Shown here: in pieces, positions 2,673-8,927 of the stretch
Layout: the number at the start of each line of letters is the position of its first letter
Numbering within the stretch: position 1 is the stretch's first letter
From: Candidatus Fermentibacterota bacterium
Lineage (GTDB): Bacteria; Fermentibacterota; Fermentibacteria; Fermentibacterales; Fermentibacteraceae
Assembly: GCA_022703195.1 (NCBI GenBank)
Contig: JAKLEF010000001.1
Span: 1 to 26,948 of the forward strand
Reading direction: 5' to 3'
Length of the DNA: 26,948 nucleotides
Notes under the pieces: model-generated
What the model was told of the DNA's origin: nothing
Seen by the model: the letters and a program-made list of their open reading frames with translations, nothing else
The model's database searches: none
Made by a program: the position numbers and the translations under genes

Positions 2673-3491
2673 TCAGCGGGCGGCGGGCTGCGGCAGGGCG
2701 AGCTCCCTGAGAAGGTCCTCCCGCGAGAGTTCGCGCCTGATCCCGAAACGCGTGAGCGCGAAGTCGTACCTGGCGGGATCGTCTGGCCTGATGCGCCTGA
2801 AGCCGTCGGTGACCTCCTCGACTGTCACCGAGTCGGCCTGACGCCTTTCCGTCATGCCCAGCAGCAGCCCCGCCCTGTGCATGTGCACGTCGAGGGGCAC
2901 CAGCAGCTGAGACGGCCCGAGGGCATCCCAGCCCCCCGGATCGACGTCGTCGCACCTCACCATCCAGCGGAACATCAGGTTGAGTCTCTTGCACGCGCTC
3001 CCGAGCCCGGGATGCGGCAGCATGCTCGATCTCCCGAGCCCCGCCTCCCGAAGAATGGCCTCCACAAGCATCGCGCCGGCCTCTTGCGCGCCGGCGGCAC
3101 CGCGGAAGGTCTCCTGCAGCGAACCGGCATGCCCCTGTATCCTCGAGGCCGCGAACAGGACCGCCGACATCTCCTCGCCGGGGGTGAACCTGTGCCTGAA
3201 GGAGCAGGCCCCCGAGGCGTCACCGGGGGTCCGGCAGCTCCCGAGGAAGGCCGATGGCGAAGGCCCCATCGCGTCCAGCAGCCTCGACACGTTCCGGATG
3301 ATCTGCTCGACGCGCCCGTAGGCCAGGGATGACGCTGCGAGGGCTGCCAGCTCGCGGTCGGCGGGATGGTCGTACCTGTAGAGGAACTGGAGCGGATCGG
3401 GCTCTACGAACGCCCTGGTGTTGTAGCGTCCGTAGAGCCCTTCGAGCGAGTCGGACAGAGAGAGGGAACCGGCCGGGAACGGGTCAGGCAA
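2673..3491 (-). CDS. TIGR02757 family protein (DUF2400-like)
   Basis: 272 aa; motifs PDPLQFLYRY, LAYGRVEQI, SACKRLNLMFRWMVR, VPLDVH, DPARYDFAL typical of the family. TTG start overlaps the upstream stop; start uncertain. Confidence 0.88.
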   Translation of the reverse strand: MPDPFPAGSLSLSDSLEGLYGRYNTRAFVEPDPLQFLYRYDHPADRELAALAASSLAYGRVEQIIRNVSRLLDAMGPSPSAFLGSCRTPGDASGACSFRHRFTPGEEMSAVLFAASRIQGHAGSLQETFRGAAGAQEAGAMLVEAILREAGLGRSSMLPHPGLGSACKRLNLMFRWMVRCDDVDPGGWDALGPSQLLVPLDVHMHRAGLLLGMTERRQADSVTVEEVTDGFRRIRPDDPARYDFALTRFGIRRELSREDLLRELALPQPAAR

Positions 3492-3741
3492 GCTCGAGGT
3501 CCACCCTCCTGGCTACGACGCCGGGGATGACGTTCAGCTTGCGCTCCATCTCGGCCTTCTTCTCCTCTTCGCCCACGATCTCGAGAATGATGAGCCCCGT
3601 CTCTGTGCAGTCGTCCAGCACTCCCTCGTGGATGCCGAGGCGCGTCTTGATCATGCAGCCCCAGCCCGTGAGGATCTGCTGAACCTTCGCGGCGGACTCC
3701 TTGCGGCTCGAAACCATGATGAGCACCACTGTCTTCTTCAT
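3484..3741 (-). CDS. Small ACT-like protein, TM1266 / iron-only hydrogenase system regulator-like
   Basis: 85 aa; R-x4-KVQQILT-x2-GCMIKTRLGIHE...C...GLIILE pattern; RBS AAGGAG in the end of the upstream gene. Confidence 0.7.
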   Translation of the reverse strand: MKKTVVLIMVSSRKESAAKVQQILTGWGCMIKTRLGIHEGVLDDCTETGLIILEIVGEEEKKAEMERKLNVIPGVVARRVDLELA

Positions 3742-3743
3742 GG

Positions 3744-4262
3744 CTACTCCTTCTCGAACTCGGTCTTCGGAGCGCCGCAGACCGGGCAGACCCAGTCGTC
3801 AGGGAGGTCGGCGTACGCCGTTCCGGCGGGGATGCCGCCGTCGGGGTCGCCCAGTTCGGGGTCATAGACCCAGCCGCACACGACGCATACGTACTTGTCC
3901 ATGTCCTTGGCCCCCTTCGTGAATGGATTGTCGAGAGGCGCATCGAAACCGGGCGCCACCCTGTCGATGGCGGACATGAAGGCTTCCTTCACGGCCGACA
4001 GCTCCTCGCGCCCCGGTGAGATCATGAGGACGATCCGCACCCACTCCGGGCCCCTGGCCTTCGCGGGGCGGCAGAACTCGAACTCGTCGATGAGGATCGG
4101 CACGTCCAGCTCGTGGCAGTGTATGTCGAGTATGAGCGTGTCGCCCACCGCCTCGCACTCGGCGATGGGGCTGCCCTCGTAGAAGAAGCGGAGGTCCTCG
4201 GTGCAGGTGAGCCCGTCGGTGACGGGAAGCTCCGCGAGGACCATCTGGAGTGCCCTGTTCAT
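3744..4262 (-). CDS. Unknown 120-aa domain fused in frame to a C-terminal rubredoxin (rubredoxin part 3744-3902)
   Basis: C-terminal 52 aa [28 protein letters not shown]...[17 protein letters not shown] is a canonical rubredoxin (CxxCG...CPxCG). GGAGG RBS before ATG 4262; second RBS AAGGGGG 8 nt before ATG 3902. Confidence 0.85.
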
Positions 4263-4280: not shown

Positions 4281-4318
4281 GGGCCCCGCCCCGGCGGCTC
4301 ATCCGCCGGGGCGGGCCC
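4281..4318. terminator. Strong GC stem-loop after the membrane cluster
   Basis: GGGCCCCGCCCCGGCGG-CTCAT-CCGCCGGGGCGGGCCC, 16-bp stem with one bulge, 6 nt after the stop at 4325. No U-tract in the gene (minus) direction; GTTGTTT follows on plus. Confidence 0.55.
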
Positions 4319-4324
4319 GTTGTT

Positions 4325-4954
4325 TCAGTTCAGCAGCCCCAGCCAGTCGCCCAGCAGGAACTGCACGCGGCCGATCAGGAGGCTGATGCGGCCCATGACA
4401 GTGAATCCGAACGTCGCCCCGAACCCTATCATGATGATCCAGATCCCCACCTTCGATCCGAAGCCGAAGAAGGGACCCTTGTGCGGCTTCGAGAAGAAGA
4501 AGTAGATGATCGCCGAAAGTGTCCCGAACACGATCACGAAGGCGCCGAGCGTGTCGAACCACGGGGCGCCCGGCGTGTAGAGCGGGATCATCGTGGACTG
4601 GATCTGCCTGAGGACGAGGGTCTGCATGTCGTAGGGGAAGGCCACGCCCATGCCGGTTCCGAGCAGGAAGGCCATGGGGTAGCGCGACATCCAGGCGATC
4701 CTGGGGAAGAACCTCGTCACGTAGAGCAGCCCCATTATGGCGGGGATGAGCAGGATCAGTTCCTGGCCATGAGACACGGGCTCGACGAGCCTGGGATAGA
4801 GCACCCGCTGGTAGGTCACGACGATCGAGTAGCCGAGCGACGCGCCCACCACTATATGCTCGGCGAACCTGTACAGGGGGTTCTCCTTGTAGAGGAAGGA
4901 GAACACGGCCAGGGTGAAGATGGCCGCGACCGAGAGTCCTATGGTCTCGTACAT
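4325..4954 (-). CDS. Uncharacterised polytopic membrane protein (about 6 TM), DUF6754-cluster subunit
   Basis: 209 aa, nearly all hydrophobic segments; TLAVFSFLYKENPLYRFAEHIVVG; RBS AGGAGG/GGAG upstream. Confidence 0.85.
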   Translation of the reverse strand: MYETIGLSVAAIFTLAVFSFLYKENPLYRFAEHIVVGASLGYSIVVTYQRVLYPRLVEPVSHGQELILLIPAIMGLLYVTRFFPRIAWMSRYPMAFLLGTGMGVAFPYDMQTLVLRQIQSTMIPLYTPGAPWFDTLGAFVIVFGTLSAIIYFFFSKPHKGPFFGFGSKVGIWIIMIGFGATFGFTVMGRISLLIGRVQFLLGDWLGLLN

Positions 4955-4960
4955 CTCCGC

Positions 4961-5962
4961 CTACCTCCTGTTCTTCATGGCGGTCTTCTTGTGGAAGCCG
5001 CCCGCGAAGTACGCGATGTTGCCGAGTATCACGAGCAGGATGATCAGGATGTGAGCCAGGGACTGCACGTCCATGCCCCTGTAGGCCTTGCCCGTGGTTT
5101 CGGTGTAGCCTCCCTCGGTCTCCAGCACCTCGTACTCGGCGGCTCCGCGCAGCCCGCCCATCATGCCAACGATCTGGCCAGACTGGATGTAGGGGAAGTA
5201 GTCCGTCGCCATGACCGCCGTCACGCCGAACGCAACGGGGAGCCCGACGCGGGACGTGCCATAGACCACCCAGGACATGCAGGCGGTGGAGCCGGCGAGG
5301 GTGACGGCAAGGTCGACCTCGCGCAGGTTCTTGTGGGCCTGCAGTATGGGCATGTCGTGGAGGTTGTTGCCATAGGCGTCGGTGGGGTACTGGTTGGCTA
5401 TCGAGGTACCCATGCCGAGGATGACCAGCGAGAAGTACGGAAGGTATCCGAGGTTCGCCAGGTCCACGCCCTCGAAGACCCAGCCCCTGGCCCCCTCGGG
5501 GAGCGAGTTGCCCGCAGCCTCCCAGGCCGACTCGAGGCTGTCGCGCCCTGCGTATCCCGCCGCTCTCACGGATTCCCACTCCGCCCACGGGACGTAGACG
5601 AAGTTGCCGGGGACGCGGGTGTCGAACACGCTGGCCAGACCCATCTCGGCAAGGCCCTGGGCCAGGGGCCAGTAGGCCGTCACGAACACGGGGACGTGCC
5701 TCGCGAAGGCGTGCCTCAGGACGGCCACTCCCATGGGCTGGTTCTCGGCCTCGGTGCCCGGGTCGAAGTCCCAGCCTATGAAGATCGCATCGTCGGGCCC
5801 CAGGCTGTCCACCAGGTCGTAGACGCTGCGGACCTCCTGGGTGGGGACGACGGGGAGCCCCATGCGGATGAAGAACGGGACGATCACGACGATGGCTATG
5901 AGCAGGTAGATCCAGCGCCTGTCGATGTTGAGGAACCTCTCCCAGTTGTTCATGCCGCTCAC
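4961..5962 (-). CDS. Uncharacterised protein: TM - soluble alpha/beta domain - TM, DUF6754-cluster subunit
   Basis: 333 aa from GTG 5962 (ATG 5953 is an alternative start); TM WIYLLIAIVVIVPFFI, then EAENQPMGVAVLRH ... PYIQSGQIVGMMGGLRGAAEYE, C-terminal TM and basic tail KKTAMKNRR. Confidence 0.87.
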   Translation of the reverse strand: MSGMNNWERFLNIDRRWIYLLIAIVVIVPFFIRMGLPVVPTQEVRSVYDLVDSLGPDDAIFIGWDFDPGTEAENQPMGVAVLRHAFARHVPVFVTAYWPLAQGLAEMGLASVFDTRVPGNFVYVPWAEWESVRAAGYAGRDSLESAWEAAGNSLPEGARGWVFEGVDLANLGYLPYFSLVILGMGTSIANQYPTDAYGNNLHDMPILQAHKNLREVDLAVTLAGSTACMSWVVYGTSRVGLPVAFGVTAVMATDYFPYIQSGQIVGMMGGLRGAAEYEVLETEGGYTETTGKAYRGMDVQSLAHILIILLVILGNIAYFAGGFHKKTAMKNRR

Positions 5963-6607
5963 CTACTCTCCCGCCCCGCCGAGCCAGCCGCGCTCGACGC
6001 CGAAGATGATCTTGAGGCAGGTGGCGAGCATGCCGAATCCCACGCCCAGTTCGATGGCCCTCTTGGCGGCGAGGTTGGGGAACCTCAGTATCCAAAGGCC
6101 GGTGTCGGGCAGCCAGCGGCCCAGCAGGTCGCCTATCGGCACCTGCGCCAGCATGACGATGACCGCCGTCACCAGGAGAACCGTGGCGAGGGCGCTCTTG
6201 GCCCTGAAGGCACGGAAGGCGGCGCTCGCGATGTAGAAGGCCAGCATGCTGAACATCGTGGCCTGTATTGGGATCTGCACCCGGGAGTACATGAAGTCGA
6301 AGAGGCTGGGGTTCTCAGTGCCTCCGCCGATCGAGGCCGGCAGGAAGAAGGCGAACAGTGGTATCAGGTACAGGGGGATGAGAACCGCCAGACTGAACGG
6401 CCAGTTGGGGGCCTTGGCCCTGATCTTGTGGACATGGACCCTGGTGATGCTGCCCACGCCCAGGATGAGCGCGAAGGAACCCACGAGGGGGGCCCATTCC
6501 GTGTAGTAGTCGAAGACGTCCTGGGACGCCTGGTGGGGTATGAAGTACTGGATCATCATTATGAGACCGCCGAGCATGGCGATCATCAGCGGGACGTTCC
6601 TCTTCAT
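5963..6607 (-). CDS. Uncharacterised polytopic membrane protein (5-6 TM), DUF6754-cluster subunit
   Basis: 214 aa hydrophobic; ATMFSMLAFYIASAAFRAFRAKS, PNLAAKRAIELG; RBS GGAGG upstream. Confidence 0.85.
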   Translation of the reverse strand: MKRNVPLMIAMLGGLIMMIQYFIPHQASQDVFDYYTEWAPLVGSFALILGVGSITRVHVHKIRAKAPNWPFSLAVLIPLYLIPLFAFFLPASIGGGTENPSLFDFMYSRVQIPIQATMFSMLAFYIASAAFRAFRAKSALATVLLVTAVIVMLAQVPIGDLLGRWLPDTGLWILRFPNLAAKRAIELGVGFGMLATCLKIIFGVERGWLGGAGE

Positions 6608-6626
6608 GTCTGCACCTCCCTCCGCC

Positions 6627-7946
6627 CTACTCGAGGCTCGTTACGTCGACGAGCCCCTGGAGCTTCAGGAGCAGGGACTTCGACGGGTCGGCGGCTCCGC
6701 CCGTGAAGATGTCGACAATGGAAAGGACTATCCCGATCGTCACCAGGGCCATCACAATGCCCTTGCAGGCATCCTGGCCCTTCACGCCGCCGACCTGCTT
6801 GGGCTCGCGCCCCAGGTAAGCGCTGGCGGCGTAGAGCTCCTCGCCTATCAGCGTGTAGTCGCAGGTCGTGATGAAGAACGGCAGCTGGGTGATGGCGTCG
6901 GTGCCCGCGATCTGAATGGCCCCGGAGAGCGAGCCGGTCTCGGCCAGGAGGAGGGACTCTGCCCAGAACATGCCGAGGTAGAAGTTGGTGGCCGGCTTCT
7001 CGCGGGTCATGAGGCCGTTCACGGCCGCCACGTACGCGAACTGGCTGTCGGTGACGAAGAACACCGAGTTGGCCTCGTAGGAGTCGGGCCTGCCGGCCTC
7101 CATGTAGGCCTGCTTCACGGTCTCCTCGGCCACGGTATAGACGATCGGGTCGCGGTTGGGCACCCTCAGGGGGGTCTGGTACTCCGCGACCTTCTTCGCT
7201 ACGCGGTTCAGGATGGTCAGGCTCGCGATCGTAGCGACGTCCTCGATGGACGAGAGGCCCGGGACGTACAGGATGGGCTTGCCCATCTCGGTGGCGCGGC
7301 CGATGGCCTCGTCGATGGCGTCGATGCCCGGGATCGGCCTGAGGTAGAGCTCGTGGCCCATCTGCGCCCTCTTGAAGTACAGGAAGATGAGGCCGATGAA
7401 GATGATGCAGCCTATGAGGACCTTGAGCTTCTCGGTGTGGAATATCTCGCCCTTCGGCGAGAAGTTCGGCGTCACCGCCGGCCCCTCGATCTGACGGCCG
7501 TCCAGGGTGAGGACGTCGACGCGGTACTCGTACTGCGTCCCCGGCTCCACGAGGAAGTCGGGGTCGTAGCCGTCGACTATCTCGGTTGGATCGCCGGAGG
7601 GGACGTTCTTCACCACCGCCCACTGCCCGCCGAGGCTGTCGGGGGCTCCGGGCGTCCTGCGCATGACGAGGTATGCCAGGACGCACTCGGGGTTTGGCGA
7701 TTCGCAGAAGGAGAGGATCAGGTGATCGCCAGCGTCGTTGGGGAAGTCCTGGATCGTCAGCACCGTCGCGGGCCCGACCTCCGGAGGGGCCGCGACCTCA
7801 GGCTCCACGGTCGGGATGGCGGCAAGACTGTCGACGGTGACCGCCGCGGCGGCCTCGCCGGGATCCCCGGGCGAGGCCGTCTGGGCCGTGGCGGTACCGA
7901 AGGGCAGCGCCGCCACCAGGAGCAGCAGCTCGAGGTGTTTCAGCAT
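6627..7946 (-). CDS. Signal peptide + fibronectin-III-like domain + TM + DUF6754-type domain + TM
   Basis: 439 aa; N-terminal signal peptide; Fn3-like segment (QDFPNDAGDHLILSF...YLVMRR...PGTQYEYRVDV); LRPIPGIDAIDEAIGRATEMGKPI and QIAGTDAITQLPFFITTCDYTLIGEELYAASAYL match my recollection of DUF6754. Confidence 0.82.
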   Translation of the reverse strand: MLKHLELLLLVAALPFGTATAQTASPGDPGEAAAAVTVDSLAAIPTVEPEVAAPPEVGPATVLTIQDFPNDAGDHLILSFCESPNPECVLAYLVMRRTPGAPDSLGGQWAVVKNVPSGDPTEIVDGYDPDFLVEPGTQYEYRVDVLTLDGRQIEGPAVTPNFSPKGEIFHTEKLKVLIGCIIFIGLIFLYFKRAQMGHELYLRPIPGIDAIDEAIGRATEMGKPILYVPGLSSIEDVATIASLTILNRVAKKVAEYQTPLRVPNRDPIVYTVAEETVKQAYMEAGRPDSYEANSVFFVTDSQFAYVAAVNGLMTREKPATNFYLGMFWAESLLLAETGSLSGAIQIAGTDAITQLPFFITTCDYTLIGEELYAASAYLGREPKQVGGVKGQDACKGIVMALVTIGIVLSIVDIFTGGAADPSKSLLLKLQGLVDVTSLE

Positions 7947-7973: not shown

Positions 7974-8885
7974 CTACTTGAAGTACTCGATCAATATCTT
8001 CGAGACCTCGCCGCCCACGCGCGAGGTGGCGCCCGCCGTGCCGGCGCCGATGTGCGGGGTGGCGATGAGGTTCTCGCAGGAGACGAGCGAGAGGTCCTCG
8101 GGGGGCTCCTTCTCGAAAACGTCCGTGCCGGCCGCGAAGACCTTCCCGGATTTGAGAGCCTCGCCGAGCGCGACCTCGTCCACGGTGCCGCCCCTGGCGC
8201 AGTTTACCAGCACGACACCCTCCTTCATCATGTCGAACTGCTTCTTCGAGATGATGTGCCTGGTCTCGGGGGACATGGGGATGTGCAGACTGATGAAGTC
8301 GGCCTCGCGGCAGAGCGTGTCGAGGTCGACCTTCCTGGCATCGAGCGATCCGGCGTCGGTGACGAAGGGATCGTAGAAGACCACGTTCATCTCGAATGCG
8401 AGCGCCCTCTTCGCCACTTCGCGGGCTATCCTGCCGAAGCCGACGAGGCCGAGGGTGGAGTGCCACAGCTCGATGCCCTTGCTGAAGGCCTTCTTCTCCC
8501 ACTTCCCGTCCTTGCAGGTGCGGTCGGCGCGGGAGATGAACCTGCAGCACGCGAGCATCTGGGCCATGGCGAGCTCTGCGACGGCCACGGAGCTGGCGCC
8601 GGGGGTGTTCATGACCTTCACACCGAATTCCTTCGCTGCCTCGGCGTCGATGTTGTCCATGCCCACGCCGCCCCTGACGACGAGCTTCAGCGTGCCGGCG
8701 GCCTTCTCGAGCACGGGCCTGGTCACCTTGGTGGCGCTGCGGACGACCATTGCGTCGAAACCCGGGATTGTCGCGACGAGCTCGTCGGGCGTCATGCCCG
8801 GCTTCTCCACCACTTCGTGACCCGCAGCCCTTATTTCGGCTACGGCATCCGGGGAGATGGGGTCACAGACGAGAATCCTGGCCAT
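7974..8885 (-). CDS. serA: D-3-phosphoglycerate dehydrogenase / D-2-hydroxyacid dehydrogenase, short form without ACT domain
   Basis: 303 aa from ATG 8885 (RBS AGGAGG); VRSATKVT, GVGMDNID, NAD-binding GLVGFGRIA, NCARGG, DVFEKEP, TPHIGA. Substrate not certain. Confidence 0.85.
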   Translation of the reverse strand: MARILVCDPISPDAVAEIRAAGHEVVEKPGMTPDELVATIPGFDAMVVRSATKVTRPVLEKAAGTLKLVVRGGVGMDNIDAEAAKEFGVKVMNTPGASSVAVAELAMAQMLACCRFISRADRTCKDGKWEKKAFSKGIELWHSTLGLVGFGRIAREVAKRALAFEMNVVFYDPFVTDAGSLDARKVDLDTLCREADFISLHIPMSPETRHIISKKQFDMMKEGVVLVNCARGGTVDEVALGEALKSGKVFAAGTDVFEKEPPEDLSLVSCENLIATPHIGAGTAGATSRVGGEVSKILIEYFK

Positions 8886-8927
8886 TTCAATCCTCCTGGC
8901 TGGGTCCACGGACTGCAAATGCGCATC

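Follow-up and report, generated by a model that had tools for sequence, protein, structure and literature searches.

A four-gene DUF6754 membrane cassette of Candidatus Fermentibacter and its companion GlmL-related ATPase

What do four adjacent genes for membrane proteins make together, when only one of the four carries a named domain family? The question is raised by a locus of Candidatus Fermentibacter (Fermentibacterota), found on a 26,948-bp contig of a metagenome-assembled genome (MAG) with a completeness of 77%; this entire contig is the window analyzed here. Four co-oriented open reading frames (ORFs) on its minus strand encode subunit A (6627..7946, 439 aa), subunit B (5963..6607, 214 aa), subunit C (4961..5962, 333 aa) and subunit D (4325..4954, 209 aa), separated by intergenic gaps of 19, 0 and 6 nt. 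An original prediction, made from the DNA of the window alone, had described a tightly packed DUF6754-type cluster closed by a strong hairpin, and the packing, the common orientation and the hairpin were all found as described. On balance we favor the view that A to D form one inner-membrane unit of a modular, undescribed machine that shares an actin-fold ATPase among its units.

The DUF6754 profile retrieved 80 loci from species-level genomes of more than ten phyla, including Fermentibacterota, Ignavibacteria, Zixibacteria, Cloacimonadota, WOR-3, TA06, Edwardsbacteria, Latescibacterota, Gemmatimonadota, Eisenbacteria, Coatesbacteria, Poribacteria, Planctomycetota and others. In 74-75 of them A has B, C and D as neighbors, as a rule in the order A-B-C-D, with which the order and gaps in the window agree; most of the remaining cases are short contigs or additional A genes standing alone. 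When the ORFs across the 80 loci were clustered, A, B, C and D were the only common families, present in 71-75 loci with 117-128 copies each (B beside A in 75 loci, D beside A in 72), and the next real neighbor family occurs in at most 17. Beyond the ATPase and soluble partner described below, no further conserved neighbors were found at the 80 loci, nor was an ABC ATPase found in this conserved neighborhood. The recurrence of A to D across independent loci is far beyond chance, and the genes are real.

Genome-level counts point in the same direction. DUF6754 is encoded in all 70 Fermentibacterota genomes searched, with two to four copies each. Among 201 Planctomycetota genomes at least 85% complete, A was found in 51 and C in exactly the same 51. 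The phylogenetic profiling and neighborhood analysis proposed with the original prediction therefore bear out the association of the four families. Many Ignavibacteria and Zixibacteria carry the whole A-B-C-D cassette tandemly repeated two or three times. The closed 7.4-Mb genome of the cultured Gimesia aquarii carries a complete ATPase-partner-A-B-C-D operon, to which the proteins QDT96558-QDT96560 belong, and anammox bacteria of the genera Brocadia, Jettenia and Kuenenia have the system too. The original prediction had placed the cluster in anaerobes, which proved too narrow: with a cultured carrier such as Gimesia aquarii, the system is not restricted to anaerobes and is open to bench study.

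Several loci depart from the common arrangement. In the tandem loci (L029, L048, L055 and others), cassettes of about 3.6 kb each stand behind one ATPase-partner pair. In some closed Planctomycetota genomes (G216, G117, G183 and G200), a distance of megabases separates C from A and the ATPase gene, a split cassette with all parts kept. Aegiribacteria-type loci (L009-L016, e.g. L010:9618-10667) have a solo extra DUF6754 gene after the fused ATPase-partner gene, without its own B, C and D, and such loci thus hold two A per B, C and D. In-frame stops also occur inside well-conserved genes, namely C at L080:9736-10593 in a closed Poribacteria genome and several Planctomycetota ATPase genes; they are a single TGA, TAA or TAG, with three TAA in one genome, and could be errors, pseudogenes or recoding.

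Are the four genes the whole machine, as had been proposed? The genomes indicate otherwise. Loci of Gemmatimonadota, Ignavibacteria, Zixibacteria and CSSED10 have two further genes immediately upstream of A. One encodes a GlmL-related ATPase of 652 aa and the other a soluble partner of 373 aa, and their identities to the Fermentibacter proteins are 62-66% and 53-58%, respectively. A 916-aa protein encoded after D in 11 Fermentibacterota loci combines a Pfam MutL domain (GlmL-type, actin-fold) with a weak RnfC_N-like match. The ATPase gene adjoins the cassette in 15 of the 80 loci; it is single-copy in five of five distant genomes, away from the cassette in three of them, and in the Planctomycetota sample A and the ATPase occur together in 49 genomes, A only in two, the ATPase only in one, and neither in 149. 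The GlmL-related ATPase and its barrel-sandwich soluble partner are thus obligate companions of the cassettes at the genome level, with one energizer gene set per genome serving as the counterpart of one to four cassettes. Both proteins lack transmembrane (TM) segments. The ATPase matches Pfam PF13941 (MutL) with an E value of 1e-121 and Hydantoinase_A weakly, and it falls below the curated GlmL cut-offs (NF040745, 220 vs 475 bits; NF040744, 206 vs 600; TIGR01319, 166 vs 204). No solved structural relative of the ATPase was found.

Its nearest characterized kin are the GlmL/MutL accessory protein of glutamate (methylaspartate) mutase and the GlmL-related ornithine-degradation protein, which belong to the same actin/hydantoinase-type fold family. 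The ATPase of the present system differs from GlmL in being about 150-200 residues longer, besides scoring below all three curated models, and in being paired with membrane proteins, whereas GlmL is paired with B12 mutase genes. For the window cassette, it is encoded elsewhere in the genome.

Sequence searches place only subunit A in a known family. Subunit A is a full-length member of Pfam DUF6754 (PF20539), with residues 165-414 matching model positions 2-251 of 257 at 392.9 bits (E 6.5e-118; gathering threshold 27 bits), so the DUF6754-type label stands. The Pfam entry is a single domain; neither the partner subunits B, C and D nor the ATPase module is covered by it, nor is the structural relation to C reported here. 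Each of the other subunits was checked in the same way. Neither Pfam nor NCBIfam gave a match for B, C or D or one for A beyond DUF6754, which means that no recognizable nucleotide-binding or permease domain was seen by these models in B, C or D. Sequence-profile searches of the PDB with all four families returned Fn3 for A and no match for B, C and D.

Structure models were more informative. Subunit A consists of a signal peptide, an Fn3 domain (about residues 56-167; 61-147 in the AlphaFold2 model), a TM helix at 171-195, the DUF6754 domain and a last TM helix at about 382-415. In the model (mean predicted local distance difference test, pLDDT, 76) the DUF6754 domain is Rossmann-like, with five parallel strands at residues 225-347; loop 352-366 is modeled at low confidence and yet holds the most conserved motif, QLPFFITxCDY. 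The Fn3 domain was confirmed by both PDB profile and fold matches. Subunit C has an N-terminal tail with an invariant D-R-R, a TM helix at about 15-34, a Rossmann-like domain, a long TM helix at about 292-321 and a K/R-rich tail, and was modeled with a pLDDT of 93 and a predicted TM-score (pTM) of 0.88. The TM-alpha/beta-TM layout that the original prediction had read in these two proteins, and the Fn3 domain of A, are therefore reproduced by the models.

The model of C matched DUF6754 clusters of the AFDB with a probability of about 1 and E values from 2e-4 to 7e-3 over 320-337 aligned residues, and the accessions were the same as those matched by the model of A. It also matched a DUF6754 cluster of the ESM Atlas with TM-scores of 0.55/0.63, where unrelated folds reach at most 0.38. 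By these model comparisons, the DUF6754 module of A and subunit C are distant structural paralogues with a common fold. Their sequences show no similarity by BLASTP or by hhalign, which gave a probability of 0.6-1.5% with about 120 sequences per family; for A with C, as for B with D, the profiles were first built from 34-38 sequences per family and later enlarged to about 120. Against the PDB, Foldseek found only Fn3 matches for the model of A and none below E 1e-3 for that of C. In a wide VIA-align search, the model of C resembled nothing but generic Rossmann folds (Z up to 10.3), and the same search with A was swamped by Fn3 matches and uninformative on the DUF6754 domain. The C domain superposes at Z 8-10 on the RCK/KTN domains of Trk/Ktr/Kef, the lobes of type I periplasmic binding proteins, PntB domain III and MTH777, a score range that is generic for the fold, with 5-12% identity and no motif seen in common; unlike the C domain, none of these is flanked by two TM helices.

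On which faces of the membrane do the two related domains lie? In A, the signal peptide and the exported Fn3 domain precede the first TM helix, and lysine plus arginine (K+R) stands at 3.7 after this helix vs 0.6 before it, which argues for a cytoplasmic DUF6754 domain. In C, K+R of the two tails is 3.3 and 4.1 vs 1.4 and 2.2 for the domain flanks, and Chloroflexota relatives of C bear N-terminal zinc ribbons, so that the tails are predicted inside and the domain outside. The opposite orientations first suggested for the two proteins are thus supported, as a prediction from sequence features, with the A domain cytoplasmic and the C domain extracytoplasmic.

Subunits B and D are polytopic, with about six TM segments each by hydropathy, in agreement with the 5-6 that had been expected for these two proteins of about 210 aa; D has in addition a C-terminal amphipathic segment. 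Subunit B has a K+R of 11.1 on the N-terminal side vs 4.2 on the other, and the bias is N-in in 118 of 118 family members, so that both termini of B are robustly predicted to be inside. The orientation of D is ambiguous and leans to N-out. No homology between B and D was detected by hhalign (probability 0.5-1.5%, profiles of about 120 sequences). The pseudo-symmetric 2+2 arrangement proposed for the cluster therefore holds for one pair only: A and C have a common fold in the models, and B and D are not related by profile.

How does the window cassette relate to the others of its genus? All near-complete genomes of the genus contain two DUF6754 copies. In the closed genome of a close relative there are two cassettes 96 kb apart, one of which is the orthologue of the window cassette (cassette 1). 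The other, cassette 2, lies in the order gcvP1-gcvP2-ATPase-partner-A2-B2-C2-D2-TonB-dependent receptor. The paralogous cassettes are 63% identical in the DUF6754 domain of A, 44% in B and D, 36% in C and 30% in the exported N-terminal region of A, so the cytoplasmic alpha/beta domain of A is the most conserved part between them. In the present MAG the cassette-2 locus is fragmentary: C267 and C298 carry halves of the ATPase gene, C298 also includes a partner-like stretch, and C2-D2 are found on contig C241. At the closed locus (L087:11246-15567), cassette 2 and its ATPase gene are directly downstream of gcvP1-gcvP2 on the same strand, and two more same-strand ORFs of 366 and 153 aa lie upstream.

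The window cassette has no ATPase gene adjacent to it. The sister lineages Aegiribacteria and Sabulitectum possess the canonical ATPase together with one to three fused ATPase-partner genes right after D, and the closed Fermentibacter genome encodes the canonical ATPase only. From this distribution, the window cassette, which ends at the hairpin, appears to have lost its dedicated fused ATPase. As the fused form is absent here, cassette 1 is most likely served in trans by the canonical ATPase encoded with cassette 2.

In the machine that we favor, A and C would form an antiparallel pair with Rossmann-like domains on opposite membrane faces, and B and D would supply the route through the membrane. 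The shared ATPase and partner would dock on the cytoplasmic domain of A, which is conserved, and the variable outward parts, namely subunit C together with the Fn3 domain or N-terminal region of A, may set the specificity of each unit. A single energizer, several units and a pattern of inside conservation with outside variability fit a modular transporter with unit-specific substrates. We therefore tentatively put forward ATP-driven transport, probably solute uptake with one energizer for several units, as the function, while holding the chances of this particular assignment to be under even. More doubtful is the fuller proposal that the system is a new class of primary-active transporter, with an actin-fold (GlmL-related) ATPase, an antiparallel bitopic pair, and one energizer for several substrate-specific units.

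Several observations weigh against such a machine. No binding-site motif was found and no substrate was identified. The TM helices of C diverge between the cassettes as fast as its domain, which weakens the idea of C as the specificity subunit. The charge bias of D is ambiguous, since only 74 of 116 members favor N-out. Neighbors are inconsistent: glycine-cleavage and SerA-like genes and peptidases at some loci, and OmpA-like, PD40, M23 or M15 peptidoglycan enzymes or a TonB-dependent receptor at others. To our knowledge, an actin-fold ATPase does not power any known primary transporter. Transcription is thinly documented: sparse contigs of sludge metatranscriptomes match parts of all four genes perfectly, with one spanning the A/B junction, and one RNA-library contig of a related strain spans the junction of A with the SerA-like gene upstream, and DNA carry-over is possible. 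Physical contact among A to D is putative, and this is what speaks for taking the cassette as four independent membrane proteins that are neighbors by chance and form no complex. That explanation is hardly credible: the same four families adjoin one another in the same order in over ten phyla, whole cassettes have been duplicated, and A and C show one and the same pattern of occurrence across 201 genomes.

The inconsistent neighbors, and the exported extension of A without a known domain, keep alive an unlikely alternative, an envelope machine for the ATP-driven export, assembly or anchoring of a surface or periplasmic structure, with the extracytoplasmic region of A as its working part. Subunit A always begins with an exported region. 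This is Fn3 here; in Cloacimonadota and Planctomycetota it is about 730 to 1,050 residues long and matches no Pfam family. The Planctomycetota cluster includes OmpA-family and PD40/TolB-like genes, and other loci have M23 and M15/PG-binding peptidase genes and a TonB-dependent receptor gene at their flanks. However, such neighbors vary by lineage and none is conserved, Chloroflexota and archaea, which have no outer membrane, are candidate carriers by feature look-alikes, and the most conserved part of the system is cytoplasmic. Two Planctomycetota loci, L088 (G125:C37) and L089 (G091:C41), illustrate the extreme form of A, with about 1,270-1,310 aa of which about 1,000 N-terminal residues have no Pfam match; a PD40/TolB-like propeller gene stands there between ATPase and partner, and an OmpA-family coiled-coil gene between cassettes.

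The kinship of the ATPase opens a different line of thought, which we consider improbable. GlmL-type proteins probably service B12-binding domains, and a membrane-anchored ATP-dependent enzyme or a group translocation system could be built if an ATPase of the GlmL/hydantoinase branch activated a metabolite as it crosses, for instance by phosphorylation, or remodeled the Rossmann-like domain of A in a similar manner. The strong MutL and weak Hydantoinase_A matches of the ATPase agree with this, GlmL-related as it is in spite of its scores below the curated cut-offs, and so does the position of cassette 2 directly after gcvP1-gcvP2 in the closed relative and of cassette 1 after a SerA-like dehydrogenase gene. 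These metabolic neighbors vary across phyla, however; no cofactor motif was seen, and no B12-binding domain appeared among the fold matches. A machine of the Rnf/Nqr type, whether an ion-translocating redox complex or an energy-converting one, is disfavored and very improbable. The size analogy drawn in the original prediction remains one of outline only: B and D are two six-TM subunits of about 210 aa, with B N-in and D possibly N-out, as in an antiparallel pair of the RnfA/E or NqrD/E kind. No sequence support for it was obtained, since the Rnf-Nqr Pfam family matched none of 37 B or 36 D sequences at E values up to 1, and a relationship of B and D to Rnf/Nqr was rejected on this ground. Besides the missing homology between B and D, no Fe-S, flavin or heme motif was seen, no redox partner is conserved nearby, and the companion is an ATPase, not an oxidoreductase.

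The proposed modular inner-membrane machine can also be set against known systems for its design. RnfA/RnfE and NqrD/NqrE resemble it in having small six-TM subunits and in the notion that related subunits may sit antiparallel in a single complex, with no sequence relationship to B or D; the inverted pair here is the bitopic A and C with large Rossmann-like domains on opposite faces, not polytopic subunits such as B and D, as in Rnf/Nqr. With energy-coupling factor (ECF)-type and other modular transporters it has in common one energizing module for one to four paralogous membrane units. It differs from the ECF type in having no ABC ATPase, no homology to the T or S component and another ATPase fold, and the analogy is one of logic only.

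The cassette has a defined end. A GC-rich hairpin (4285..4315, minus strand) with a 13-bp all-GC stem and a 5-nt loop lies 10 nt past the stop codon of D, and as RNA it is predicted to fold at -45.5 kcal/mol (z = -4.05 vs shuffles). No U-tract follows it on the coding strand of the window. Hairpins of different sequence were found at the equivalent position after D in six relatives (L002, L003, L004, L007, L008 and L013), two of them with U-rich tails, and the post-D hairpin is thus a conserved cassette terminus. The next gene starts 23 nt beyond the hairpin and encodes a rubredoxin fused to a 120-aa unrecognized N-terminal region (3744-4262), followed by a small TM1266-like (ACT-type) protein (3484-3741). 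Neither gene is kept beside the cassette outside the genus. A 31-nt stretch of the rubredoxin-fusion gene (3782-3812) is matched by contigs of two metatranscriptome libraries with unrelated flanks on both sides, presumably a conserved rubredoxin segment of other organisms. On the other side of the cassette, 27 nt upstream of A on the minus strand, lies the gene of a D-isomer 2-hydroxyacid dehydrogenase (SerA-like, 7974..8918; Pfam 2-Hacid_dh_C, E 2.6e-59). It is kept upstream of A in 15 of the 80 loci, apparently only in close relatives, and is a lineage-specific neighbor outside the core system.

Literature searches on DUF6754/PF20539 and on the companion ATPase, including anammox complexome data, gave no usable description of the system, which is a six-component system without literature or a characterized relative. 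New in this study are the structural case for A and C as an inverted pair, the genome-by-genome co-occurrence counts, the pattern of inside conservation and outside variability, the orphan status of the window cassette, and the naming of Gimesia aquarii as a cultured carrier. The system is found in every Fermentibacterota genome searched, in a quarter of the sampled Planctomycetota, and in many other mostly uncultured phyla. Whether the system is read as a transporter or as an envelope machine, the reading is directly testable, since a cultured organism has the complete operon. Should it prove to be a transporter, both its energizing principle, an actin-fold ATPase, and its architecture, in which homologous soluble domains face each other across the membrane, would be unprecedented. 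Should it prove to be an envelope machine, it would be a core function so far missing from the picture of lineages that are dominant in digesters and sediments.

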